A DNA stretch of 64,000 bases from a bacterium (GCA_965200485.1 CBDAUD010000001.1:123858-187857); one strand, 5' to 3'; positions 1,857 to 37,241 are shown, counted from the stretch's first letter. Numbers and translations are program-made. Notes: generated by a model from the sequence alone, not told the origin.

Positions 1857-3674
1857 CTATCCTCCGACAGCCGCGCCTTCGCCCCGGATGTCAAGCACCG
1901 CCAGAAAGGCTTCCTGCGGCAATTCGACGTTCCCGACCTGCTTCATGCGCCGCTTGCCTTCCTTCTGCCTTTCCAGGAGTTTGCGTTTCCGGGTAATGTC
2001 GCCCCCATAGCACTTGGCTGTAACGTTCTTGCGCAGGGGACGGATGGATTCCCGCGCGATGACCCTGCCGCCGATGGCGGCCTGGACGGCGACCTCGAAC
2101 ATCTGTCGCGGTATGATCTTTCGCAGCCGCTGGCATAGCTCGCGGCCCCACTCGTAGGCCTTGTCCTTGTGGATGATAATCGAAAGGGCGTCCACCAGGT
2201 CCCCGTTGAGGAGCAGGTTCAGCCTGACCAGGGGCGAGGCGCGGTAGGCCAGGAAGTCGTAGTCGAAAGAAGCATACCCCCGGCTGATCGACTTCAGCCG
2301 GTCGTAGAAATCGAAGACGATCTCCGACAGCGGTAGTTCGTACTGCAGGGCAACCCGGGTCGCGTCGAGGTATTCCATGGTCTTGTATACGCCTCGCCGA
2401 TCCCGGGTCAGCTTCATGATATTGCCGATGTAGTCCTTCGGCACCACGATCTGCGCCTGTATGAAAGGTTCTTCCACATAGCCAATGAGCGAGGCGTCGG
2501 GCATGTCGGCCGGGTTGTCCACCCTGAGCACCTCGCCCGCCGTGGTCGTGATCCGGTACTCCACACTGGGCATGGTGGCCAAAATGGTGAGTCCGTACTC
2601 CCGCTCAAGGCGCTCCTGCACTACCTCCATGTGCAGGAGTCCCAGGAACCCGCAACGGAAACCGAATCCGAGCGCTGCCGAGGTTTCGGGCTCGTACACC
2701 AGCGCCGCGTCGTTCAACTGGTATTTTTCCAAAGCCTCCTTGAGGGGTTCGTAGTCTTCCGAAGACGCCGGGAACAAACCGCTGAACACCATGGGCTTGG
2801 CCTCCCGGTAACCGGGAAGGGGCGCATCGCATGGACGGACGGCATCAGTGACCGTGTCCCCCACGCGGGCATCCGCCACGTTTCTGATATTGCCGATCAG
2901 ATAACCGACTTCCCCGGCCGTGAGCGCATCCACGGGGGCCTTGTCGAAACGAAGGATGCCGGTCTCCGTAACTTCGAATCGTTTGCCATTGGAACACATC
3001 ACGATTTCCATGCCCGGCTTTATTTCTCCACTCACGACGCGCACGTAAGGCACGGCGCCGCGATACTGATCGAATATCGAGTCGAAGACGAGCGCCCGCA
3101 ACGGACCGTCATCGGGTTCGGGAGGCGGGACACGGTCCAGGATGGCCCGCAACACTTCCTCGACCCCGATCCCGTCCCTCGCGCTGGTCAGTATGATCTC
3201 GTCGGGGTCGATACCCAGGAGGTCCACGATCTGTCCCGTAACGACATCGACGCGGGCATTCGGAAGATCGATCTTGTTGATCACCGGGACAATGGTCAAA
3301 TCGTTTTCCAGCGCCAGGTACAGATTGCTGATCGTCTGCGCCTCAATACCCTGGACCGCGTCGACGATCAGGAGTGCGCCTTCACAGGCGGCCAGGCTGC
3401 GGGAGACTTCGTAGGAAAAATCGACATGACCGGGGGTATCGATCAGATTGAGGGCGTAAGCCGTGCCGTCCGGCGAGGCATAGGACATGCAGATCGCATG
3501 CGCCTTGATTGTGATGCCCCGCTCCCGCTCCAAATCGAGATCATCGAGCATCTGGGCACGCATTTTCAAGGGAGACACGGTGCCCGTCATCTCCAGCAGG
3601 CGATCCGCCAGCGTCGACTTGCCGTGGTCGATGTGCGCGATGATGGAGAAGTTTCGAATATGTTCCGTGGACAT
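1857..3674 (-). CDS. lepA: Translation elongation factor 4 (LepA)
   Basis: [38 protein letters not shown] and C-terminal [25 protein letters not shown]. Confidence 0.98.
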
Positions 3675-3742
3675 GAAAACCCCTGCAGCCGCCCGGAGAA
3701 CCGCAACAACGTCCTTGTTGGCCAGCGCATGCGACAGGGCGA

Positions 3743-3771
3743 AATAAAACGTTTGTACCGCCGGATGTCAA
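3743..3771 (-). promoter_or_regulatory. Putative sigma70 promoter for lepA-lepB-hemW
   Basis: Minus strand TTGACA-N17-TTTATT about 70 nt upstream of lepA. Confidence 0.4.
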
Positions 3772-3799
3772 CAAGTATGCGGGTTGCAGAGAAGCCGTA

Positions 3800-4375
3800 C
3801 TACGGGCGGGAATCGCTTAGCGTCTCGGCCGTGCGTATCAGCACGTAACCGACCAGCAGCGTGGTGCTCACCAGCAGGAGGGAACTCCAGTCGACGGAGG
3901 CGGATACCGGTTCGGGCACGAAATTCGCCAGTGCGCCGACCCGGGTTTGCGCGTAGGTCTGCAGGTCGCGAACAAACGTCCCCACCGGTCCGACTACAGC
4001 CTGCACGGGGAGGGCATCTTCCACAATGCCCGCCAACGCTGCGCGGTACAACCAGACCAGTACGGCAACCATCAGCGTGCCGGCGAAGACTACGCGAGGG
4101 AAGACCAGGGACAAGACGGCCCGCCAGGACCGCCGGGGCGCCGGAAGCCTTGCCAGCACGTCGGTCAGGAAGGCGTCGGAAGGTGCTGCCGGAGGGGCCG
4201 TCTCTACCGCGTCGATCAGGGCGTCGCGCACGGCCAGCTCCGATCTGCAGCCCGCGCATTCGGTCAGATGGGCGTCTACCAGATCGCGTTCATCCGAGGC
4301 AAGCGTCCGGTCAACGGCCTCATACATCAATCGTCGTACGGATTCGCAATGCATGGTCATTCGGCTCTCCGCCAT
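3800..4375 (-). CDS. Zinc-binding (zf-HC2) membrane anti-sigma factor
   Basis: N-terminal HCESVRR...AHLTECAGC (HxxxCxxC ZAS motif) followed by hydrophobic helices; 9 nt downstream of the ECF sigma gene. Confidence 0.85.
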   Translation of the reverse strand: MAESRMTMHCESVRRLMYEAVDRTLASDERDLVDAHLTECAGCRSELAVRDALIDAVETAPPAAPSDAFLTDVLARLPAPRRSWRAVLSLVFPRVVFAGTLMVAVLVWLYRAALAGIVEDALPVQAVVGPVGTFVRDLQTYAQTRVGALANFVPEPVSASVDWSSLLLVSTTLLVGYVLIRTAETLSDSRP

Positions 4376-4384
4376 GCGTCCGGG

Positions 4385-4972
4385 TCAACCCGGCGGATCG
4401 GGCTCCATGGACTGGCCAACCAGGTTCCGCAAAGCGGCGCGCGCGCGGAACAGCCGGGCCTTGACGGTGCCAATCGGCAGTTCCAGCACGTCCGCGATCT
4501 CGTCATAAGACAGACTTTGCATATGATACATTGAAATCACCGCGCTGTAAATAGGCGGAAGCGCGGAAACCAGATTTCTGACCTGCGCGCTGAATTCAGC
4601 CTGCTCGAACCGTTCCGCGGGATTTGCCGAAGTGTCCGGTATCTGCATCGGCAATCCGTCCTCGGCGTCTTCCGATTCCGAAAGGGAAGTGGTGGAGACG
4701 GATCGCCGGGACCGCCGCGCCGCGCTCAGGCTGACGTTCACGGCGATCCTGTACAGCCACGTGGCGAACCTGGCGTCTCCCCGGAACCGGTCCAGGCTTT
4801 TGTACACCCGGACAAATACGTCCTGCGCCGCCTCTTCTGCGTCTTCCCGGTTTCCAACGATCCTGAAGGTCAGGTTGAAAACGGAAACCCGGTGTCTGTC
4901 CACAAGATGGGCAAACGCGGACCGGTCGCCTTTCCGGGTCCTTGCGACGAGTTCTTCATCGCTCAAATCCAT
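4385..4972 (-). CDS. ECF RNA polymerase sigma factor (SigW/RpoE-like)
   Basis: Region 2 DAEEAAQDVFVRVY...FATWLYRIAVN and region 4 SYDEIADVLELPIGTVKARLFRAR. GAGG sits 6 nt before the ATG at 4972; alternative start 4984. Confidence 0.92.
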   Translation of the reverse strand: MDLSDEELVARTRKGDRSAFAHLVDRHRVSVFNLTFRIVGNREDAEEAAQDVFVRVYKSLDRFRGDARFATWLYRIAVNVSLSAARRSRRSVSTTSLSESEDAEDGLPMQIPDTSANPAERFEQAEFSAQVRNLVSALPPIYSAVISMYHMQSLSYDEIADVLELPIGTVKARLFRARAALRNLVGQSMEPDPPG

Positions 4973-5080
4973 GGGTCGCCTCATCCCTGTCTAAAGCGAG
5001 TCTCAGCCGCATGCAGGGCCGTTCCCCGGACAGATGCGACCCCCATCAGGCATCCCGGACCGGTTCCCTGTTCATCAAAA

Positions 5081-5107
5081 GACTACGGAAAATCTACAAA
5101 TGTTTCA
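5081..5107 (-). promoter_or_regulatory. Putative ECF-sigma promoter for the sigma/anti-sigma operon
   Basis: Minus strand TGAAAC-atttgtagattttccgta-GTC (GAAAC-N18-GTC), resembling ECF -35 AAC / -10 CGT-GTC elements. Confidence 0.5.
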
Positions 5108-5165
5108 CTGCATGCGTTCACTTTTTCTATGGCCATACCCGCAAATAGATTTAATTTGCAATTTT

Positions 5166-5192
5166 CGAAACAACCGTATCGGTTTTCGTGTC
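5166..5192 (+). promoter_or_regulatory. Putative ECF-sigma promoter for DUF6249-pspC
   Basis: Plus strand CGAAAC-aaccgtatcggttttcgt-GTC, with the same GAAAC-N18-GTC spacing as the divergent element. Confidence 0.45.
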
Positions 5193-5259
5193 GAAAAAAA
5201 GAGCGGTGCCGTCAGACAGACGCGGCGCATGAGCAAGTGGGACTCTTCTGGAGGCTGGT

Positions 5260-5724
5260 ATGGACAACTGGAAAGCGTGGACGGCTTTGTTTCTGAGCGT
5301 TTGCGTCATGGTTGTGACGCTTGCCTATCTGGATTACTGGGTAGTAGCCATCGTGGCGGTTTCCGTTTCATTCGGACTCGGCATGGTCTGCGCGCTGCTG
5401 GGTTTTCTGAAGCGAGGAAGGGAAATCAGACACCGGGAACGTCTGGCGATGATCGAGAAGGGAATCTACATCGAAGCCACCAGGAAGCACGAGACAGGCG
5501 TGCCGTCTTTGGCCGTGGTGCTCCTGGTCGGTATCGGCCTGGCCGCGGTCGTCGCAAGCGACGTGGCGTTTTTCGGATTCGTACTGCTGTTCGTGGGTCT
5601 GGGCCTGATTGTGCGCTCCCGGCTGCAGCATAACAGGAACCAGGAGCAGGCCAGCCTTGAACAAGACCAACCCGGTCCCGGCGCCGAAGAACATGCGACG
5701 CCGGAAACGCGGAGTGCGACATAA
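5260..5724 (+). CDS. DUF6249-like membrane protein
   Basis: About four TM segments flanking the RHRERLAMIEKG motif typical of DUF6249 proteins found next to ECF sigmas; GGAGG RBS. Confidence 0.7.
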   Translation: MDNWKAWTALFLSVCVMVVTLAYLDYWVVAIVAVSVSFGLGMVCALLGFLKRGREIRHRERLAMIEKGIYIEATRKHETGVPSLAVVLLVGIGLAAVVASDVAFFGFVLLFVGLGLIVRSRLQHNRNQEQASLEQDQPGPGAEEHATPETRSAT

Positions 5725-5727
5725 CCC

Positions 5728-6429
5728 GTGCCCAGGAAAATCCTCTACAGATCCTCTTCCAACCGGATGATAGGCGGCATCTGCGGCGGGCTGGCCGAAT
5801 ACTTCGACGTGGATACCTCCGTGCTGCGGATCGCGCTGGTCGCCTTCACGCTGATCACCCTGCCCGCTTTCGGTCCCTTCGTCTTTCTGGCGTATCTGGT
5901 ATGCATATTCATCATACCTCGAAACCCCGACCCGGATTCAGCGGAAAAGGCCGGCGCGCCAGCGGTTTCCGGGGAATCCGACCAAACTGAACCGGTCGTC
6001 CGGGAAGGCCGGGGAAACCCGGTGTCGGTCCAGAGCAACAGCACGGTCTGGGGCATTCTGCTGGTGCTCGCGGCCGTGATCGTGTTGACCTATTCCGTCG
6101 CGCCGGACTTCGGGTACTTCTCCTTCCTCCTTCCACTGGTGCCCATCGCGATCATCGTCGCCGCGATCTTCATCCCGTTTGCTTACAGAGGACAAATCAT
6201 GGCGTTCTTCAGACATCGACGGCTGTACAGGCTGGATGAAGGCAAAAAGATCTTCGGCGTGTGCAACGGACTTGCGGATACGTTCGACCTCGATCCGACC
6301 CTGGTGCGCATCGTGTTTTTCATCGCCTTCTTGTTTTCCGTGGGCACCGTGACTCTGCTCTATCTCTTCATGGCATTTATCATGCCCGTGGGACGTCCGG
6401 AAATGCCCATTGAGCAGGCTGAGGCTTGA
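5728..6429 (+). CDS. pspC: PspC domain protein with two PspC domains
   Basis: N-terminal LYRSSSNRMIGGICGGLAEYFDVD and C-terminal LYRLDEGKKIFGVCNGLADTFDLDPTLVRI PspC motifs, with a central TM hairpin. Confidence 0.85.
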   Translation: MPRKILYRSSSNRMIGGICGGLAEYFDVDTSVLRIALVAFTLITLPAFGPFVFLAYLVCIFIIPRNPDPDSAEKAGAPAVSGESDQTEPVVREGRGNPVSVQSNSTVWGILLVLAAVIVLTYSVAPDFGYFSFLLPLVPIAIIVAAIFIPFAYRGQIMAFFRHRRLYRLDEGKKIFGVCNGLADTFDLDPTLVRIVFFIAFLFSVGTVTLLYLFMAFIMPVGRPEMPIEQAEA

Positions 6430-25054: not shown

Positions 25055-25936
25055 TCATCGCGCGAATTTGCGTTCGCGCAACCTGAAGAACTGCAACAGC
25101 GGGTCGATATAGGGCTGATCCGTCCGGATGTGGATGGCATCCACGCCGGTAATGCTGAACTGTCTGTCGCGTTCGCTTCGGACGGCCGCGTTGTACTCGG
25201 CGTACTGCCTTCGCCATTCGGGGTCGCCCGTATCGATCAGGACCTCTTCTCCCGATTCCGCGTCTTCCAGTTCGATCAGGCCGACACCGGGCAGGCTGAG
25301 TTCCCGCGGGTCGGCGACCGTGATGGCAACGACATCATGCCGTTTGCTGGCTGCCCGCAGCGGCTTGGTATAGTCCGCGGTCAGAAAATCGGATATGAGG
25401 AAAATGATGGCTTTGCGCGTCAACAGCCGATTCAGGTATTCAAGCGCCTGTGCGATGTCGGTGCCGGTGTGCTCGGGCCGGGCGTATAGCACTTCCCGTA
25501 TCACCCGCAGAATATGGGTGCGGCCCTTCTTCGGCGGGATGAACTGCTCGATCTGGTCCGTGAACATGAGGAGGCCAACACGGTCGTTGTTCTTGATCGC
25601 CGCGTAGGCGAGCAGGGCGCAGATTTCCGCGGTGATCTCACTCTTCAACTGACTTGCCGTACCGAAATGACCCGACGCGCTGACATCCGCCATGAGTATG
25701 ACGGTCAGTTCCCGTTCCTCGATGAAGCGCTTTACGTACGGACGCCCCAGGCGTGCCGTGACGTTCCAGTCGATCGACCGGATTTCGTCGCCCGGTTCGT
25801 ACTCGCGCACCTCGGCGAATTCCATGCCGCGGCCCTTGAAAACGCTGTGGTACTCCCCGCTGAACACGTCGTTCACCAGATGCCTGGTCCGGATCTCGAT
25901 CTGCCGGATCTTCTGGATGATCTGCCTGGGTATCAC
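25055..25936 (-). CDS. DUF58 (VWA-like) MoxR-associated protein
   Basis: GEYHSVFKGRGMEFAEVREYEPGDEIRSIDWNVTAR, EERE, NNDRVG and ISDF; the GTG start overlaps the moxR stop. Confidence 0.92.
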   Translation of the reverse strand: MIPRQIIQKIRQIEIRTRHLVNDVFSGEYHSVFKGRGMEFAEVREYEPGDEIRSIDWNVTARLGRPYVKRFIEERELTVILMADVSASGHFGTASQLKSEITAEICALLAYAAIKNNDRVGLLMFTDQIEQFIPPKKGRTHILRVIREVLYARPEHTGTDIAQALEYLNRLLTRKAIIFLISDFLTADYTKPLRAASKRHDVVAITVADPRELSLPGVGLIELEDAESGEEVLIDTGDPEWRRQYAEYNAAVRSERDRQFSITGVDAIHIRTDQPYIDPLLQFFRLRERKFAR

Positions 25937-26946
25937 GGGATCTCCACACAATCGAAGACGCGCTGCAGGATCTGTTCGGAAGTCATGTCCTCCGCCTCCG
26001 CCTCGTAGGTGATAATGACGCGGTGACGCAGCACATCCATCCCGATCGCCTTGACGTCCTCGGGTGTCACGTAACCCCTGCGTCGAAGGAATGCGTGCGC
26101 ACGCGCGGCGGTGGCGAGGAAGATCGTCGCTCTGGGCGAAGCGCCGTACTCGATCAGGTCGCGGATTTCGCCGAGTTCGCGATAGTCTTCCGGTCGACGG
26201 GTTGCGGAAACCAGCTCCACGATGTACTGCTTGATCTTCTCATCCATGTAGACCTGGTTGATGATGGTTCGCGCCTGGACGACTTCCTCCAGCGATACGA
26301 CCTGCTCCGCTTCCACCGGCTCGCCCGACGTCATGCGGTCCAGGATCTCCAGTTCTTCTTCCTTGCCGGGATAGGTCGCGATCAGCTTGAGCATGAACCG
26401 GTCGACCTGGGCTTCCGGCAAGGGATAGGTCCCCTCCTGCTCAATAGGATTCTGTGTGGCGAGTACGAGGAAGGGATCCTCCAGCGGGAAGGTCTCGTCG
26501 CCTATGGTCACCTGGTGCTCCTGCATGGATTCCAGGAGTGCGCTTTGCACTTTCGCGGGCGCCCGGTTGATCTCGTCCGCCAAGATGAGATGCGCGAAAA
26601 TCGGGCCCTTCTTTGCAACGAACTCGCCACTTCCCGCCTGGTAGATCATGGTGCCGGTCAGATCGGCGGGGAGCAGATCCGGTGTGAACTGTATGCGTTG
26701 GAACCGCGCAGAGACCGTCGAGGCCAGGGTGCGTACGGCTAGGGTTTTGGCCAGGCCCGGCACCCCTTCCAGCAGGATGTGCCCATTGGTCAACAAGCCG
26801 ATCAGGAGACGCTCGATCATGTACTGCTGACCGACGATGACCTTCCCGATCTCCGAGATCAGGCGGTCGACAAAAACGCTCTGCTCGTAGATCCTGTCGT
26901 GGATTGCCTTGATGTCGTCCGGTGATTTCGCTTCTGCTGATCGCAT
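25933..26946 (-). CDS. moxR: MoxR family AAA+ ATPase
   Basis: LEGVPGLAKT, RIQFTPDLLPAD, LADEINRAPAKVQSALLE, ATQNPIEQEGTYPLPEAQVDRF and GASPRA. Confidence 0.96.
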   Translation of the reverse strand: MRSAEAKSPDDIKAIHDRIYEQSVFVDRLISEIGKVIVGQQYMIERLLIGLLTNGHILLEGVPGLAKTLAVRTLASTVSARFQRIQFTPDLLPADLTGTMIYQAGSGEFVAKKGPIFAHLILADEINRAPAKVQSALLESMQEHQVTIGDETFPLEDPFLVLATQNPIEQEGTYPLPEAQVDRFMLKLIATYPGKEEELEILDRMTSGEPVEAEQVVSLEEVVQARTIINQVYMDEKIKQYIVELVSATRRPEDYRELGEIRDLIEYGASPRATIFLATAARAHAFLRRRGYVTPEDVKAIGMDVLRHRVIITYEAEAEDMTSEQILQRVFDCVEIP

Positions 26947-30892: not shown

Positions 30893-31903
30893 ATGCCTGA
30901 AAACTCCATCCGCGTGGGCGTTTACGGCACCGGCCGGTTCGCTCGGGCCACCCATCTGCCCAACCTGAGCCGAATCGACGGCGTTGAAATCGTGGCGCTG
31001 TGCGATATCAATGAAGACGCGTTGCGCGAAGCGGCCGCGCAGTTCGGGGTCGCCCGTACCTACACGGATGCCCATGCCATGCTCAGGACCGAAAAGCTCG
31101 ATGCCCTCTGGTCCATCGTGCCGGCCTTTGCGCGCACAAATGTGGAAATCGCCGCGGCCGAACGAGGCATTCAACTCTTCAGCGAGAAACCCCAGGCCAT
31201 GGATCTGGCCCTGGCAAAGCGAATCGACGAAGCGGTGCGAAAGGGCGGCGTGATCAGTACGGTCGGCTTCAGGGAGCGGTACCGTCCGATCTTTCAGGAA
31301 GCCAGGCGGCTGCTCCGGGACAAGCGCGTGGTGCACGTCCGTTTCCAGCAAATCGCACAGCGCACGAAGGCTGCCGGTCGGGACGGAACCGAATGGTCGG
31401 CACAGATGGAGAAAGGCGGGGTGCGTTTCTTCGACTGGGGGGTGCACGCCACCGACTACATCCGGTTCATGACCGGACAGGACATCCGCAGGGCACAGGC
31501 CTTCCTCTGCCATCCGGACGATTCCCATACGCCGCTTTCTTCGTCCTTTCACTACCAGCTTTCGAGCGGCGCCACGGCCACGCTGACCTTTATCGAATCC
31601 GATCCTGCCGGACCGGGGGAAGAACCCTACTTCAGAATCCACTTCGACGGTGGCCGGCTCGGTATCTTTGGCTACGAACGCATCGAGCTGAACGACAAGA
31701 CAGTCTACGAGGCCGATCCTTTCGACCCGTGGATGGTCCAGGACCAGACCTTCGTGGAGGCGGTCCGATCGCATAATCCCAGTCTGCTTCGGAGCGATTA
31801 CCATGACGGACTTAAATCGCTCGCCCCCATCCTGGCCGGATGGGCTTCTGCGCGCAAGGACGGGGTCTGCGTGGACGTGGAGCGGTTTATCGAAGAGGCG
31901 TAG
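30893..31903 (+). CDS. Gfo/Idh/MocA family oxidoreductase
   Basis: GVYGTG, EKP and DWGVHATD motifs. Confidence 0.85.
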   Translation: MPENSIRVGVYGTGRFARATHLPNLSRIDGVEIVALCDINEDALREAAAQFGVARTYTDAHAMLRTEKLDALWSIVPAFARTNVEIAAAERGIQLFSEKPQAMDLALAKRIDEAVRKGGVISTVGFRERYRPIFQEARRLLRDKRVVHVRFQQIAQRTKAAGRDGTEWSAQMEKGGVRFFDWGVHATDYIRFMTGQDIRRAQAFLCHPDDSHTPLSSSFHYQLSSGATATLTFIESDPAGPGEEPYFRIHFDGGRLGIFGYERIELNDKTVYEADPFDPWMVQDQTFVEAVRSHNPSLLRSDYHDGLKSLAPILAGWASARKDGVCVDVERFIEEA

Positions 31904-32052
31904 TTCGCCCGGCGGGTTGTTTGCGATTCAATCCCGCAAGACTTCGGTGGTTTGACGAAGCCGCTTATGATACTTTATTGCATTGTCAGGGGTTCTTACC
32001 GACCTATGCGTTTGCCAGCCGCGACACTTCACGCTATCTGGAGATTCCGGGT

Positions 32053-34851
32053 ATGACTTTCGTAAGGAATATCTCCGAAAAGTGGCATGGGGACGTCCCC
32101 GGGGCGAGGTGGTTCAAGGCGGACCTTCATGTTCACACGATTGATGATATGCCTGGAGGCAAAGTTGGGTTACCGGACGATTTAAACGGTCCTTTGGACT
32201 CGGAAGAAACGATTTGCGCCTATGCCCGACTGTTCTTGCAAAGCGCGGTGGAAAGGCAGGTGGGCGTAATAGGTGTGACGCCTCATTCACCACACATCGA
32301 TACGAACCCAAACTTCAGCGCGGTCTGGCGCATCGTGGAAGAATGGAATAGCGGTGTAGACGATGACGAAATACCGTTCAGAGAGAAGATTTACGCTGTA
32401 TTCCCCGGGTTCGAGCCCTCGTTAGACCATGGTCGGTCGGGGCTGCATCTGCTGTTCCTTTTCGATCCCGAGATAGGTTATGAAAGTTTCCTTCGGGCAT
32501 TTTCGATTGTGATGGGCACCCAGTCATCGTCATGGCGCGATAACCAGCTTCAGCTTTCAAGCATTGGTCCGGAAGAAACCTTCCGAAAACTTCGCGAATT
32601 CCATCACCAAGAACAAAGTGAACACTCCTCGACCGGCTCGTCCGTTTGGAATTACATCACACTCGCTCCCCATATCGATAGCGAGAAAGGGTTGCTCGGG
32701 GCACAGAGAGCGCAAGTCCTGAGTTCGTTTCAGCATGGCGAGGTAGCCGGTCTTGAACTTGGTGATGAAAAAATGCCTGACGAGACTTTAAAAAAACGCC
32801 CTTGGCTGGCATCGGGGATGAAAGACCATCATCAGGCTTTTTTCCACAGTTCCGACGCGTACGCACTGGGCGATATTGGAAGACGTCATACATGGATCAA
32901 ACTGGCCAGCCCGAAGATAGAAGCCCTTCGCCAAGCTTTTATCGCCAATGATTCAAGAATACGCCTGGGCTACGAAAGGAACGGGGACGGGTGCTTGAAG
33001 GAGATCACGGACTCGCCAGACGTAACGGTGAACAAACGACCGTGGCTCAAATCCGTCACAATCAAGGGCAGTGCTTCGTTCTTCAGCAGCGGCGGGGACG
33101 GACTTGATTGTCGTTTCGACCTCAGTCCCGACCTCACCTGTATAATCGGTGGCAGCATGACGGGGAAAAGCACTTTCCTTGATGGTCTGCGGGTGTACGT
33201 CAAAGCTTCGTTGCCCGAAGATGAGAATCTCGGGAAACAGGTAGAGGCACGTGGGAGGAACAGGTTTCTCGGAGGATCGCCCGATGTGGCATTGGATTGT
33301 CCGGGTAGCGAGCCGACTGCGCCTAACCACGAAAAATGGCCAGCTGTTTTTTTCGCGCAGAACGAGTTACAGCGATTGGCCGAGGAATCGGAGCAGATCG
33401 AGAACATTCTTAGTCGGTTAGTTATTTCGGAAACGCACGATATTGCAGACCGTGAAAAACGCATGAAAGCGTTTGACCTGGAGTTAAAATCAACTGCTAG
33501 GCGCCTCGCAAAACTTGATGGTGATCTCGCGGACGCGGAACAAGCTTGGGATCGAAGCCGGAGTGCGAGCGAAGCGCTAGAGGCTTTTTCGGATGCCGGA
33601 ATCGAAAAACTCCACGAAGCTTCTCGCTATTTGAGACAATGGCAGGATTTCGAGAAATCAATCGATGATGTGGGCGCCAATCTCGACTGTACCTTAAAAT
33701 CAGTGGAGGTAACCGATCCACCGCAAATAGACGCATATCTCTCGAATGTGCTTCGCAACGCGGAAAAGGACCTCATTGCGTCCGCAGAGGCAGCGTTGCA
33801 GGATGAGGAGTTTAAAACTGTATGGAAGAACGTCCATACCTACCTGCAACGCGCGAGAAGCGAGATGACCCGTACCGAGATCATCACTCGAATCGTCAAG
33901 GAAGTACTCACAGCTAACGAACAGGCCGTTCGTACCGAAGTAGATCAAGCACTGGCATCCCGCGGGATGGATGCGGCCAAAATACGAGAATATCAAGCGC
34001 TGAGCCGACAGGCCGGTCTGAAGGTGAGTTACAAGGCCAACCTCGACCAGGTTCGTGAAACGCTCGAATCCGAAGAGCGTACATTCGAGAATCTGCTTGC
34101 CGAAAGAAGTGACCTCCGCAACCAGCAGCGTGCAGCGTTCGATCGTGTGATTCAGACGGTCGACACGGATTTCGGTGGAAGAATCAAGGCCCGACGATTG
34201 GACGATGGCAACCGCGCGCCTCTTGATCGCTTTCTAACTGATCTAGGTAAACGTGGTATTACAAGATGGTGGCATGAGCTGGAGGACGAGAGGCGGCCGT
34301 CCCCCGAAACCCTGCTTTCCGCGTTCAGAAACAATCGATTGGCAAAGGTCGGGATGAGCAATGCGGTTCAGTCCACATTCCGGGAAGCCCTGGATAAATC
34401 GAAACAACGGGAATTGGAAACAATGCGGTGTCGCGACCGCTATATGCTGGAACTTGCCATGGATGATGACAGCTATCGTCCACTAGAAGACCTTTCCGGA
34501 GGTCAGCGAGTGAGCGTATTGCTCTCCCTGCTTCTAGAAACGAACGATGAACGTCCCTTGGTGATAGATCAACCGGAGGATGAATTGGACAATCGCTTCC
34601 TGATCGACACGGTACTTCCGGCCTTGAAGAAACTCAAGGGACGTCGGCAAGTCATCGTTGCAACGCACAATGCCAATATTGTGGTAAACGGAGATGCCGA
34701 TCAGGTCATTCAACTCGAGGCAACCGCAAACCGCGGCCGGATAGCATGTGCGGGAGCTATAGAAGTACCTGCCGTTAGAGACGCAACCGTCCGCACCGTT
34801 GACGGCGGGGACGACGCATTTCGCCTTCGGCGATTGAAATACGGATTCTGA
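32053..34851 (+). CDS. PHP-phosphoesterase + SMC/ABC-type ATPase fusion (Ppl/TrlF-like), candidate anti-phage protein
   Basis: N-terminal PHP domain: WFKADLHVHT, GFEPS, LHLLFLFD, APHIDSEKG, SSDAY, TWIK...EALRQAF. ATPase: Walker A GGSMTGKST, Q-loop FAQNE, coiled coil, LSGGQR, Walker B LVIDQPEDELD, ATHNAN. Start moved from 31840 to the ATG after GGAG. Confidence 0.85.
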   Translation: MTFVRNISEKWHGDVPGARWFKADLHVHTIDDMPGGKVGLPDDLNGPLDSEETICAYARLFLQSAVERQVGVIGVTPHSPHIDTNPNFSAVWRIVEEWNSGVDDDEIPFREKIYAVFPGFEPSLDHGRSGLHLLFLFDPEIGYESFLRAFSIVMGTQSSSWRDNQLQLSSIGPEETFRKLREFHHQEQSEHSSTGSSVWNYITLAPHIDSEKGLLGAQRAQVLSSFQHGEVAGLELGDEKMPDETLKKRPWLASGMKDHHQAFFHSSDAYALGDIGRRHTWIKLASPKIEALRQAFIANDSRIRLGYERNGDGCLKEITDSPDVTVNKRPWLKSVTIKGSASFFSSGGDGLDCRFDLSPDLTCIIGGSMTGKSTFLDGLRVYVKASLPEDENLGKQVEARGRNRFLGGSPDVALDCPGSEPTAPNHEKWPAVFFAQNELQRLAEESEQIENILSRLVISETHDIADREKRMKAFDLELKSTARRLAKLDGDLADAEQAWDRSRSASEALEAFSDAGIEKLHEASRYLRQWQDFEKSIDDVGANLDCTLKSVEVTDPPQIDAYLSNVLRNAEKDLIASAEAALQDEEFKTVWKNVHTYLQRARSEMTRTEIITRIVKEVLTANEQAVRTEVDQALASRGMDAAKIREYQALSRQAGLKVSYKANLDQVRETLESEERTFENLLAERSDLRNQQRAAFDRVIQTVDTDFGGRIKARRLDDGNRAPLDRFLTDLGKRGITRWWHELEDERRPSPETLLSAFRNNRLAKVGMSNAVQSTFREALDKSKQRELETMRCRDRYMLELAMDDDSYRPLEDLSGGQRVSVLLSLLLETNDERPLVIDQPEDELDNRFLIDTVLPALKKLKGRRQVIVATHNANIVVNGDADQVIQLEATANRGRIACAGAIEVPAVRDATVRTVDGGDDAFRLRRLKYGF

Positions 34852-34860
34852 GGACGAAAA

Positions 34861-36048
34861 ATGAAATGGCTGGAAATCCTAGAACGAATCGAAGCGGGTG
34901 AAAACGAAGAGACGGAATTCAAACGCGGCTTTGAAGACCTGTCGAAGATCGGCAAGGCGATTTGCGCTTTTGCGAATACAGAAGGCGGCGTAATCATCCT
35001 CGGGGTCGATAACGCGCAAGAAATCGTAGGAGTCAGAGAAGATAGTGAGGAGGTTCAGGAACGATTGACTTCTTTTCTCCAATCGGGTTGCAGTACCCCG
35101 GTTTATGCGCGTTGCGGTTGTCATCAGGACCCCATAGGCTGGGTTCATTGGATCGAAGTCCCGCGTCAACGCGGATTCGAACCTCTGTACTACGGTGGCA
35201 GGGTCTGGGTTCGTCGATTGCGTAGCAGCGTCCAACCATCACCAACCGAGCGGCAGGAACTGTACAATGTCTTTGGATACATCCTGACCGAGGAACGAGC
35301 AATACAGGCAGCCACGTCTGCGGACATCGACCTGCAGACGTTCCGCGCCTATTTGAATAAACTTGAATTCGACACCGAAGCGGAGCCTCAACCGTCGGGC
35401 GAGGATGATCTGCGCAATCGCGGCGTGCTCGCGGAACTTGGCGGTTCATTACACGGGACGCTCTACGGCGTGCTCGCGTTCGGAAAGGAACCCCAGCGTT
35501 TCCCGCAGACGAGTAGTTTTAGGATTCAATGCGTTGCCTATGGAGGTCGCGACCGAACCTCAGCCGTATTGCAAGTAGCCGACATAAAGGGAACCCTCGA
35601 CGAACAAGTTAGCAGGGCGGTAGGATGGTTCACCGGCCTTGGTACGTTTGAAGACTACGACGAGCTGGTTCGGCGCGATCGTCCGCTGCTGCCTCGAGCC
35701 GCGATTCGGGAAGCGCTCGTCAACGCGGTCGCACATCGGGACTACGCCATATCCGGCTCGAAGATACTTTTCGAGGTCTTTGCGGGACATGTAGACATTA
35801 CAAGTCCGGGCACTTTACCGAACCACATGCGTGTTGAGAGCGTCCAGGCCGGCGCCCATCCCAGGTCGCGAAATGAACTAATGGCGAATTACATGGCCGG
35901 CATGGGCTATATGGAGCAAAGAGGAAGAGGGTGGCCGTTGATGCGAAAGGCGATGCGCGAATTCAACGGCACCGAACCGGAGATGGACCAGAACGAAGAC
36001 AACAAATACGTCCGGGTGAAATTCCGTCTTGATAACATTCGTCAATAA
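34861..36048 (+). CDS. Schlafen/AlbA_2 domain + HATPase_c_4 protein
   Basis: AlbA_2: GENEETEFKR and ICAFANTEGGVIILGVDN. HATPase_c_4: IREALVNAVAHRDY, ITSPG, RNELMA, GYMEQRGRG. No C-terminal HTH. Confidence 0.88.
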   Translation: MKWLEILERIEAGENEETEFKRGFEDLSKIGKAICAFANTEGGVIILGVDNAQEIVGVREDSEEVQERLTSFLQSGCSTPVYARCGCHQDPIGWVHWIEVPRQRGFEPLYYGGRVWVRRLRSSVQPSPTERQELYNVFGYILTEERAIQAATSADIDLQTFRAYLNKLEFDTEAEPQPSGEDDLRNRGVLAELGGSLHGTLYGVLAFGKEPQRFPQTSSFRIQCVAYGGRDRTSAVLQVADIKGTLDEQVSRAVGWFTGLGTFEDYDELVRRDRPLLPRAAIREALVNAVAHRDYAISGSKILFEVFAGHVDITSPGTLPNHMRVESVQAGAHPRSRNELMANYMAGMGYMEQRGRGWPLMRKAMREFNGTEPEMDQNEDNKYVRVKFRLDNIRQ

Positions 36049-36071
36049 CGAAAACTGAGTCGACCCCAATT

Positions 36072-37241
36072 TCAACCTATGCCGACCAACTCGTTCCAGA
36101 GGTCTTCCAGCAACGCCCATCGCCGGACTGCCTCCCGTCCGTCCGCGATCCCGTCCACCAAGGGCGACAACCTCGTTTCAAGGTTCGCCGGAACGATGTC
36201 AAACAGAGGAATTTGCTTGTGCGTCCATCCGGGCGTACTCAAAAACCGCCCATTCCGTATGTACAGCGCGATCAGAAAGTCGTTCACCGCCTGGTTGGCC
36301 AGACAGTAGAGGTGTGTCCGATCATCGGCGGCCACAGCTTTATGCAATAATTCGCGAAACCGGGGACGCCGACCCCGCACCGCTCCAGTTACAGCCCTCG
36401 CCGTCTCATCGGGTATATGCGCCAGCGCGCCCTTCCACCGAGCCAACCGTCCATCCGGATCGATCAGGACGCGGCCGTTCTGCAACGCCTCGGCGAGGAT
36501 CCGCTGCCGGGGCGGCGTTGGAAATCCCGCCAGCATATCTTCCACAGTCTGACTGGTCCAGTAGCGGACATGGACCATCGCGCCATCAAGTACGACACTG
36601 TCGCAGGCCTGCTCAATCACCGGTCCGCAACGCAAGTCCGGCCAGGCCGAGATCAGCCCGCGGCGATCGGTCTCCTGGGGAATGCCCGGTCCGAAAACGA
36701 GCAGGTCGATATCCGACTGGCAATCGGCGAAACCCCTTCCGAGGGATCCGCCCAGGGCGACGGCATGGACACCCCTGAGCGACCGAAGGTTTCCCGCTAT
36801 TTCCTCCGCAAACCGGTTCAATTCGTCAGGACCCCGAGATCGGTCCGGTTTGAATGACCCGACCTGGATATCCCGATCCAGTACATCCCTTCCCCTTCCG
36901 GGTACGTTCAGCAGGGCCAGGGTATCCCGTATCAGCCGCGCCGCCGCCGCCCATGCGATCTCGGGTACGCGTTCCGAGGCCAGGCTGGTCAGGGTTCGGC
37001 CCGCGCCCTCCGGCGTCCTGGGCAACCCGCTCAGGCGAGCTCGCGCGTTTTCAAGACGCGATGGATAGAACATGGTTTCCGGCAGACCGTTCATGCCGTA
37101 CAATACGGTGGCAACCTGGTGGATGATCAGGTAGAGGGCATGGCGAAACCGGACGTGATCGCTCCGATCGATCAGGTTGGTCGGGGGAAGTCGCAGCCAC
37201 CAGTGAAGCTGCGCCGCCGCTTCCGCTACATGGTTCGACAT
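36072..37241 (-). CDS. Pol-beta superfamily nucleotidyltransferase with flanking helical (DUF4037-like) domains
   Basis: ALGGSLGRGFADCQSDIDLLVF (GS...DxD) and LIDPDGRL. Confidence 0.75.
   Translation of the reverse strand: MSNHVAEAAAQLHWWLRLPPTNLIDRSDHVRFRHALYLIIHQVATVLYGMNGLPETMFYPSRLENARARLSGLPRTPEGAGRTLTSLASERVPEIAWAAAARLIRDTLALLNVPGRGRDVLDRDIQVGSFKPDRSRGPDELNRFAEEIAGNLRSLRGVHAVALGGSLGRGFADCQSDIDLLVFGPGIPQETDRRGLISAWPDLRCGPVIEQACDSVVLDGAMVHVRYWTSQTVEDMLAGFPTPPRQRILAEALQNGRVLIDPDGRLARWKGALAHIPDETARAVTGAVRGRRPRFRELLHKAVAADDRTHLYCLANQAVNDFLIALYIRNGRFLSTPGWTHKQIPLFDIVPANLETRLSPLVDGIADGREAVRRWALLEDLWNELVGIG

Follow-up and report, generated by a model that had tools for sequence, protein, structure and literature searches.

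A distant trlF-trlG gene pair for a Rad50-like ATPase and a stand-alone Schlafen-GHKL protein in a variable bacterial defense hotspot: a candidate two-protein anti-phage module

We analyzed a 64,000-nucleotide stretch of DNA from a bacterium (GCA_965200485.1 CBDAUD010000001.1:123858-187857; hereinafter, the window), which contains, at positions 32,053 to 36,048, a cassette of two co-oriented genes that encode, respectively, an ABC ATPase with a PHP-like N-terminal domain (protein A) and a protein that combines Schlafen and GHKL domains (protein B). Comparison of the protein sequences identifies this cassette as a distant member of the already named trlF-trlG pair that lacks trlR. The interpretation that we favor, and consider fairly probable, is that the pair was horizontally acquired into a defense hotspot and functions as a two-protein anti-phage module of the abortive infection type. 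Family membership, conserved adjacency and co-inheritance of the two genes, intact catalytic motifs and the defense context are shown directly, and the anti-phage function itself is predicted.

The initial annotation, made from the sequence alone, did not recognize the pairing as a named system, but such a name exists. The 'temperature restriction locus' (TRL) of Photorhabdus laumondii DJC (Hapeshi et al. 2020; PMC7554251) consists, according to the available portion of that paper, of trlR (79 aa), trlF ('histidinol phosphatase') and trlG, a gene formerly mis-annotated as recG, with AlbA_2 and HATPase_c_4 domains at residues 14-128 and 298-365, respectively, and NCBI names the family of protein A TrlF. 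Protein A matches the NCBIfam model NF045780 ('TrlF family AAA-like ATPase') with 379.2 bits (378.7 in the genome search), residues 17-931 aligning with model positions 2-944, a narrow margin above the curated cut-off of 350 bits. The same portion of the paper reports TRL in 21 of 46 Photorhabdus genomes and names plasmid pYR3 of Yersinia ruckeri as a further carrier. On pYR3, the gene for an 875-aa TrlF overlaps by 22 nt the gene for a 382-aa 'RNA-binding domain-containing protein', and a 79-aa open reading frame (ORF) is located upstream; A aligns with this TrlF (23% identity, E = 5e-34) and B with the TrlG homolog (27% identity, E = 1e-33), both over the full length. The window pair resembles the TRL operon in that trlF is followed at once, in the same order, by the gene for an AlbA_2 + HATPase_c_4 protein of about 390 aa, with the two domains at closely similar positions (14-124 and 299-386). 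Unlike the TRL operon, it is devoid of trlR and comes from an uncultured host in another phylum, with the above 23% and 27% identity to the pYR3 proteins and with A barely passing the TrlF cut-off. The trl genes of the Streptomyces tropolone pathway were considered as well and are unrelated to the TrlF name.

Protein A had been described in the initial annotation as a Ppl-like PHP-ABC ATPase. The relationship with Ppl and the Rad50/SMC-like ABC ATPase are borne out, but A is a TrlF family member rather than Ppl proper: it scores 144.8 bits, in two stretches, against the NCBIfam Ppl model NF042955, for which the cut-off is 1000, and this difference rules out the Ppl assignment. The match to the PADLOC Ppl profile (PDLC02208; E = 5.6e-30) has its best stretch at residues 763-926 only (102 bits), and the other PADLOC matches are partial as well (mad3, 4e-15; AriA, 5.8e-11 and weaker; Old, 0.0027; PtuA, LmuB and GajA). 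Nor does A belong to the PARIS or OLD families: the AriA match is partial, the Old match is weak, and Pfam detects no TOPRIM domain, the only Pfam matches of A being to AAA_21, SMC_N and AAA_15.

The AlphaFold2 (AF2) model of A (pLDDT 80.6, pTM 0.54) consists of four parts, namely, an alpha/beta N-terminal domain, the N-lobe of the ABC ATPase, a coiled coil of about 250 residues (458-706) and the C-lobe. The lysine of the Walker A motif, GGSMTGKST, is K372, and the Walker A and B motifs, the signature and the H-loop are conserved in the alignment of A relatives. A Foldseek search with the model retrieved Smc (9.9e-10) along with the coiled-coil-bearing heads of MukB, Rad50, JetC, LmuB and RecN, and a profile search against PDB found SMC3 (1.5e-11), AriA (1.2e-5) and SMC and Rad50 heads, with no solved structure of A's own family among the matches. 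Taken together, the sequence and the model identify A as a predicted Rad50/SMC-like split ABC ATPase with a coiled-coil insert. In the N-terminal domain, the conservation of D24, H26, H28, H78, E121, H132, H207 and D268 extends to clades that share only 24% identity, and the language-model features of this domain in the ESM Atlas score 0.94 and 0.90 to PHP-bearing clusters. The PHP label appears less secure than originally assumed, the conserved residues and the ESM features favoring it.

For protein B, the initial description as an AlbA_2/Schlafen-HATPase protein stands: the Pfam matches to SLFN_AlbA_2 and HATPase_c_4 have E values of 2.3e-17 and 1.4e-18, respectively, and the catalytic motif is conserved. 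The motif ENEETEFK occupies residues 14-21, and in an alignment of 26 B sequences, E19 and K21 are invariant whereas E14 is conserved in at least 90%. The stretch E284-Y295, located just upstream of the 299-386 domain (E284, N288, H292, R293 and Y295), and SPG at 315-317 are also invariant; we take the former to be the GHKL N-box. The AF2 model (pLDDT 86.5) retrieved in Foldseek DIP2311 (3lmm; 1.9e-19), human and rat Schlafens (SLFN11/12/13/14/5) and the CA domains of histidine kinases, and B matches the N-terminal Schlafen-GHKL part (55-390) of the PADLOC SLFN-pAgo model (4.4e-22). B has no NCBIfam match and no C-terminal helix-turn-helix (HTH) domain. Thus, on the sequence and model evidence, B is assigned to the stand-alone prokaryotic Schlafens (the 'Schlatpases'), with an intact Ex4ExK motif followed by GHKL. 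By analogy with its relatives, B would be a tRNA/rRNA endonuclease that oligomerizes in an ATP-driven manner.

The conservation of B downstream of A, proposed as a check in the initial annotation, was assessed first in a scan of related loci (one genome per species) that yielded 26 loci encoding relatives of A (49-63% identity). These loci come from Acidobacteriota, Chloroflexota, Latescibacterota, Gemmatimonadota and Pseudomonadota (Vicinamibacterales, Dehalococcoidia, Latescibacterota, Terriglobia, Longimicrobiales, Alpha- and Gammaproteobacteria). In 23 of the 26, B is located directly 3' of A as a single full-length match; the exceptions are L026, with a truncated A and with B broken into two pieces; L022, where A is split and a 55-aa remnant of B persists; and L020, in which A is intact and B is missing. 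Apart from A and B, nothing is conserved over all 26 loci. Among 33 genomes of the window's phylum, 8 carry a total of 9 TrlF loci, all with a B homolog directly downstream (9/9), although A is broken in two of them (L044 and L045/46). In an even sample of 400 Gammaproteobacteria, TrlF was matched in 27 genomes, with DNA for 28 loci, and B follows in 19 (16 whole, 1 split, 1 cut at a contig end and 1 partial beside a split A). The center genome of this sample was picked because it has the pair, and leaving it out gives 18/27; two of the nine B-less loci (L050 and L075/78) are from genomes flagged as unpublished, without which the count is 18/25. At the B-less loci, the gene after TrlF codes for a ResIII helicase in L050 (from an unpublished genome) and an Mrr-type nuclease in L067, and elsewhere for a lipase-like or an unknown protein; one of these loci (L052) adjoins a PvuII endonuclease gene. 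The decay at L026 (6001-11327) is extensive: TrlF stops after about 230 residues, TrlG is in two frames, and there is an extra C-terminal fragment of TrlG 3 kb downstream.

The phylogenies of the two proteins are congruent. The A tree comprises 52 sequences, after broken or cut loci (L002, L022, L026, L044, L051, L063, L072, L074 and L075) and a duplicate (L073) were left out. Its basal four members (L049, L050, L053 and L071), none of which has B, are the top scorers against the NCBIfam model; the remaining 48 form a clade (support 99) in which B is present in 44, with four scattered losses. For these 44 pairs, the A and B trees have 25 of 41 splits in common, compared to a mean of 0.17 and a maximum of 3 in 1000 label shuffles, and the patristic distances correlate with r = 0.98 (permutation maximum, 0.27). 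The adjacency holds over four deep clades at 22-28% identity. We conclude from these comparisons that A and B are inherited and transferred together as a unit; because kin share history, the tree and co-occurrence results indicate co-inheritance only and do not imply binding. A complex prediction for residues 330-932 of A (that is, with the PHP domain left out) and B, run with our own alignments and with no interface supplied, gave ipSAE values of 0.46, 0.42 and 0.46 (median 0.46; best of three controls, 0.00), with partner pLDDT of at least 75 and agreement between runs in at least 88% of contacts. Of 80 solved complexes, 58 attain the mark that was applied, as do 2 of 110 mismatched pairs; at values of 0.60 or less, it is attained by only 7 of the 80 solved complexes and by both passing mismatches. 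The prediction rates as weak support and is not counted as evidence.

These patterns bear on the possibility, which we consider unlikely, that the cassette consists of two independent single-gene defenses that travel together, with TrlF acting as a Ppl-like DNA-end nuclease and the Schlatpase relying on its own GHKL sensor, without any cross-talk. Such independence would be compatible with the annotation and testing of Ppl as a single gene, with a Pantoea locus where Ppl is followed by a DUF3800 gene and not by B, with a solitary TrlF on an E. coli plasmid, located beside a type II restriction-modification (RM) system and serine recombinases, with the 9 of 28 gammaproteobacterial loci that have other genes in place of B, and with the finding that no A-B fusion (PF04326 or PF13749 on A) was detected in the best 120 of 992 relatives, the 'longer' length class not having been searched. 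Furthermore, single-gene Schlafens do defend, according to the available text of PMC13056530 and PMC13552941, and the Photorhabdus screen discussed below hit only trlG. Against independence stand the adjacency over four deep clades, the near-perfect congruence of the trees and the gene arrangement: the 9-nt spacing in the window and the 22-nt overlap in pYR3 point to co-translation. In addition, the single Schlafen genes that were tested on a phage panel, in the available text of PMC13056530, included histidine-kinase fusions, and yet only the DUF262 and Ig-like fusions were robust.

In the window, the two genes are 9 nt apart, as described originally: the A-B junction reads TTC TGA GGACGAAAA ATG, with the stop codon of A at 34849-34851, the 9-nt spacer and the ATG of B at 34861. 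The position of GAGGA over the stop codon of A, together with this short spacer, suggests that translation of A and B is coupled. An ORF scan of the window found open frames at 31840..34851 (+) and 34861..36048 (+); the start of A was placed at the ATG at 32053 rather than at the beginning of the frame because the GFO/IDH oxidoreductase gene ends at 31903, GGAG precedes this ATG, and the relatives begin at the aligned methionine. The by-eye impression that the pair is richer in A/T than its neighbors is matched by the measured composition: the GC content is 0.52-0.55 over 32000-35500 versus 0.60-0.64 on either side, or, by gene, 0.527 for A and 0.550 for B versus 0.595 and 0.620 for the flanks. 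The neighbors are indeed unrelated, housekeeping genes: GroEL, Ldh_2 and GFO/IDH upstream, and an NTP_transf_2/DUF4037 gene, argininosuccinate lyase, a class-III aminotransferase and an amino-acid kinase downstream. A scan for promoters and terminators was uninformative (2 promoter-like and 3 terminator-like sites, compared to 2.8 and 5.4 in shuffled sequences), and in the gap upstream of A, no sigma-70-like site exceeded what shuffled sequences yield. Most of A and B is spanned, at 99% identity or higher and at low depth, by contigs of two RNA libraries from the same study, and one contig (31848-32264) runs across the upstream gap into A.

The defense-like setting proposed for the pair is apparent from the comparison of related genomes. 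Both flanks of the site (31904-36071 in the window) are conserved throughout the 27 same-genus genomes (72-85% nucleotide identity), but the gap between the GFO/IDH and NTP_transf_2/DUF4037 genes varies from 0.6 to 13.7 kb among these genomes. At this site, the pair is present only in the window's genome (G000) and in G003 (67% identity, with A frameshifted), where a type IIG enzyme adjoins it, and G015 retains a 165-nt remnant of the 3' end of B. Other contents of the site include a gene for a 1630-aa NACHT STAND NTPase and a type IIG restriction-methylase in G002, the same NACHT gene with type IIG fragments in G015, and Dcm, HD-CE, ORC/CDC6-like and type IIG genes in G023. Because same-genus relatives carry type IIG, NACHT or Dcm modules there instead, the site is a variable chromosomal defense hotspot.

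The same genome contains a second TrlF-TrlG pair (G000:C1, approximately 654-659 kb) that shows 24% (A) and 28% (B) identity to the window pair, and its A protein matches the PADLOC Ppl profile over the full length (1.9e-138). This second pair forms the 3' end of a 17-kb minus-strand operon of low GC content (0.47-0.53; G000:C1:654000-670900, corresponding to L037 8207-19001 and L038 1-6706) that encodes a 1758-aa DruE/DrmAB-like helicase (DEAD + MZB + DUF559), an SNF2 helicase, a 1182-aa DrmMI-like Eco57I-type methylase and a 234-aa protein with weak similarity to type IIG C-termini, followed by the pair. By its gene content, the operon resembles a DISARM class 1 system to which a TrlF-TrlG pair has been appended. 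A third AlbA_2 match in the genome (G000:C1:1509653-1509991, L034; 85 bits, in a 137-aa frame) is not located beside a TrlF gene; the B-like similarity continues weakly in another frame, so this may be a broken Schlatpase gene. Multiple TrlF copies per genome recur elsewhere, with three TrlF-family genes above the cut-off in G034 (Paracoccaceae, the genome of L014) and two in G037 (Longimicrobiales, the genome of L011), as in the window's genome with its two pairs.

Another recurrent context includes a type III-like methyltransferase. In 4 of the 26 related loci, from three phyla (L001, L005, L009 and L023; approximately 2987-5935, plus strand), a co-oriented gene for a methyltransferase of about 980 aa (N6_N4_Mtase; 1393 bits against PADLOC MTase_III) is located directly upstream of TrlF, and a related methyltransferase is found upstream of TrlF in L068 (4721-5533, minus strand). 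The methylase-TrlF-TrlG arrangement may represent a three-gene variant of the system. A tblastn search of 60 loci with seven defense proteins found only these five methyltransferases and one weak SNF2 match, a set too narrow to serve as a measure of island enrichment. In L011 (Longimicrobiales), a 349-aa protein that combines HATPase_c_4 with Fic-like_C, without AlbA_2, is encoded about 1 kb upstream of the pair (4006-5055, plus strand), so that this neighborhood contains a second GHKL-type protein besides B. On plasmids, the family is represented in 978 records, including 356 from Escherichia and 203 from Klebsiella.

These contexts also bear on the view, closest to the original description of TRL, that the pair is a housekeeping-type module, a regulator of growth in response to stress or temperature or else a DNA repair device, rather than an immune system. 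The only phenotype in print (PMC7554251, available portion) is of this kind, growth being restricted at 36 C and the operon being induced by a temperature upshift; the fold of A is Rad50/SbcC-like, and members of the B family are widely mis-annotated as RecG-like. A housekeeping role fits poorly with the patchy spread of the pair (8 of the phylum's 33 genomes, 27 of 400 Gammaproteobacteria, 21 of 46 Photorhabdus), with the mixed-phylum clades on the A tree that point to horizontal transfer, with the low GC content of the insert, with its location in a hotspot occupied in other genomes by RM and NACHT genes, with the attachment to a DISARM-like operon and to methyltransferases, and with the frequent pseudogenization of the pair (L002, L022, L026, L044 and L045). 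We consider this view improbable.

Coordinates of the cassette and its predicted domains in the window
Feature	Coordinates	Strand	Basis or remark
Upstream intergenic gap, 149 nt	31904..32052	+	Carries GGAG ribosome-binding site ahead of the A start
Gene A, TrlF-family protein, 932 aa: PHP-like phosphoesterase domain + Rad50/SMC-like ABC ATPase + coiled-coil insert	32053..34851	+	NF045780 match, AF2 model
A: N-terminal alpha/beta domain, PHP-like, residues ~17-300	32101..32952	+	Alignments, ESM Atlas features
A: ABC ATPase N-lobe, Walker A (G366-S373; K372 at 33166-33168), Q-loop Q436	33040..33417	+	Pfam, alignment, AF2
A: antiparallel coiled coil, helices 458-553 and 584-706, apex near 554-583	33424..34170	+	AF2 secondary structure, Foldseek
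A: ABC ATPase C-lobe, signature LSGGQ (S815, G817), Walker B/D-loop D839-D843, H-loop H872	34180..34848	+	Motifs, Pfam, alignment, PDB profile search
A stop codon + 9-nt spacer, GAGGA overlapping the stop	34849..34860	+	
Gene B, TrlG-like stand-alone Schlafen-GHKL protein ("Schlatpase"), 395 aa	34861..36048	+	Pfam, AF2, Foldseek, pYR3 TrlG homolog
B: Schlafen/AlbA_2 domain, residues 14-124; Ex4ExK = E14, E19, K21 (34900-34923)	34900..35232	+	Pfam SLFN_AlbA_2 (PF04326), alignment
B: GHKL/HATPase_c_4 ATP-binding domain, residues 299-386	35755..36018	+	Pfam PF13749, alignment, Foldseek

Two other genes of the window deserve a brief mention. The 389-aa protein encoded at 36072-37241 on the minus strand, convergently with B and with 23 nt between the stop codons, has matches to NTP_transf_2 and, weakly, to DUF4037; it has no PADLOC match. 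Because this gene has host-like GC content and is found in the same position in the relatives, it is considered part of the flank and not of the insert. A MoxR-type AAA ATPase (AAA_3, AAA_lid_2, bpMoxR match) encoded at 25933-26946 on the minus strand is unrelated to the A-B pair.

The features of A and B invite comparison with several defense systems. Ppl (Gao_Ppl; NF042955; PDLC02208) resembles A in the fusion of an N-terminal domain, PHP-like in the case of A, with a Rad50-like ABC ATPase; unlike Ppl, which is described as acting alone, A is accompanied by a conserved Schlafen-GHKL partner, and it falls far below the Ppl cut-off. In the available text of 10.64898/2026.09.30.755081, Ppl is toxic when RecBCD is inhibited or inactive and 'likely' attacks DNA ends, with a Rad50-like ATPase like those of OLD and Gabija, and OLD senses DNA ends across its dimerized ATPase and then cleaves tRNA. 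By analogy, the proposed attack of Ppl on DNA ends and its toxicity without RecBCD provide the best functional lead for A. B shares with the Schlatpases and SLFN-pAgo, a system that includes a prokaryotic Argonaute (pAgo), the combination of AlbA_2 (PF04326) and GHKL (PF13749) with Ex4ExK, and in SLFN-pAgo, ATP-driven oligomerization builds the tRNase. The AlbA_2 + GHKL module was named Schlatpase in 10.64898/2026.05.29.728809, where, in the available text, a tetramer is reported to build a Schlafen dimer, resulting in tRNA cleavage and abortive infection, and the module is seen to move between pAgo, NACHT and RM systems. Unlike these systems, B has no fused pAgo, NACHT, HTH, Ig-like or DUF262 sensor, and the presumed sensor is encoded by a separate gene. 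The available texts of 10.64898/2026.05.29.728809 and PMC13056530 contain no mention of ABC, SMC, Ppl or PHP partners, and the main text of the PADLOC paper names neither Ppl nor Schlafen nor AlbA.

At the level of overall organization, the pair is similar to OLD, PARIS (AriA/AriB), Gabija, Lamassu and the ParA-effector systems, all of which combine a Rad50/ABC-type (or ParA) NTPase with a variable nuclease effector. In OLD and PARIS, the outcome is cleavage of tRNA; ParA partners a histidine-kinase-Schlafen effector, and the fold of A resembles those of LmuB, JetC and Rad50. The differences from OLD, PARIS, Gabija and Lamassu are that the homology of A to AriA, GajA, PtuA and LmuB is weak and partial, that the effector is a Schlafen-GHKL protein and not a TOPRIM or HNH nuclease, and that the presumed sensor bears its own PHP-like domain. 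Schlafen-minimal histidine kinase-winged HTH genes located beside BREX in at least 1017 taxa were termed back-up suicidal effectors in PMC12839542, which cites Krishnan et al. 2020 (ABC ATPases) for 'Schlafen-linked systems'.

From these likenesses and the genomic associations, we infer an anti-phage role of the pair, in which the ATPase would gate the Schlafen nuclease and tRNA would be the likely target. Under the proposed mechanism, TrlF would dimerize via its ATPase heads, like Rad50 and OLD, and sense DNA ends, free or aberrant, or else foreign DNA that arises during infection, which its PHP-like domain might attack in the manner proposed for Ppl. TrlG would be the growth-arresting effector, in which ATP binding at GHKL assembles the Schlafen domains into an active tRNA-cutting nuclease, as in SLFN-pAgo. 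TrlF would control TrlG through direct contact, either by activation or by restraint until triggered.

The genetics of the Photorhabdus locus, as reported in the available portion of PMC7554251, fits TrlG as the toxic arm and is compatible with TrlF either activating or restraining TrlG. In clones tolerant to 36 C, substitutions, stops or insertion sequences were present in trlG but never in trlF; removal of the entire operon conferred equal temperature tolerance, the operon was induced on temperature upshift, and the authors did not expect mutations in trlF alone to be deleterious. Relief of arrest by the loss of trlG alone and the failure to recover trlF mutants are also what would be predicted if TrlG were the toxin and TrlF the restraint of an addiction pair akin to a toxin-antitoxin system, which stabilizes the island or a neighboring RM system and involves no phage sensing; RM and methyltransferase genes are frequent neighbors, and the pair is found on mobile plasmids. 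Such a pair is, in our estimation, highly improbable, given that the whole-operon deletion is tolerated and trlF mutations are not considered deleterious, that an antitoxin needs far less machinery than a 930-aa Rad50-like ATPase in which nuclease-type and ATPase motifs are conserved, and that the persistence of B beside a broken A (L002, L044 and L045) is not predicted by a pure antitoxin model.

Several observations weigh against the interpretation that we favor. Many enterobacterial plasmids carry a solitary TrlF relative, and Ppl is functional as a single gene. Because all hits in the Photorhabdus mutants fell in trlG and none in trlF, a much larger gene, TrlF may be dispensable for the toxicity of TrlG. 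The available portion of PMC7554251 contains neither the word 'phage' nor the word 'Schlafen', no published phage test of a trlF-trlG pair was found in the main texts of the literature searched, and there was no follow-up on trlG among the matches listed (15 of 42). In the preprint version of PMC13056530, as far as its text is available, robust defense was provided by DUF262 and Ig-like Schlafen fusions only. The window locus cannot accommodate trlR because the 149-nt upstream gap is too short for a 79-aa gene. The N-terminal domain of A has no Pfam PHP match (PF02811/PF13263) and yielded no match in sequence and profile searches of PDB; among 22 relatives, PHP_C was detected in 3, the lowest E value being 0.032. 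Finally, the RNA-library coverage is a weak hint of expression because DNA carry-over is possible and the libraries come from a single study.

A more specific and tentative version of the two-protein anti-phage module, which we find possible but doubtful, portrays TrlF as a Rad50-like guard that binds TrlG and holds it inactive. Once TrlF encountered DNA ends accumulating through phage replication or RecBCD inhibition, or came under attack by a phage anti-restriction protein, TrlG would be released or switched on, resulting in tRNA cleavage and an arrest of translation. If so, the pair would be a PARIS/OLD-like back-up layer for neighboring restriction, DISARM or BREX systems, and the arrest of Photorhabdus at 36 C would be explained as an immune misfire. 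The guard function would also explain why, in the available text of PMC13056530, robust defense came only from the DUF262 and Ig-like fusions despite the presence of histidine-kinase fusions in the tested set.

The name of the pair, the curated family of A and the domain architecture of B are already known, and the window contains one further example. What distinguishes the window's genome is the presence of two deeply divergent copies, one of them joined to a DISARM-like operon, and a well-delimited defense hotspot. The trlF-trlG pair is widespread: the window's clade alone comprises 992 protein clusters, the family is represented in 978 plasmid records, and about 7% of the sampled Gammaproteobacteria carry a TrlF-family gene, whereas the only published phenotype of the pair, temperature restriction, comes from a single insect pathogen. 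The Schlafen-histidine-kinase form is the commonest among bacterial Schlafens, accounting, in the available texts, for 34% of 5,930 (PMC13056530) and 58.6% of 103,533 (10.64898/2026.05.29.728809). The pair links two families that annotation tools keep apart, and its strict co-inheritance makes a Rad50-like, Ppl-related ATPase a testable candidate for the sensor of this Schlafen form.

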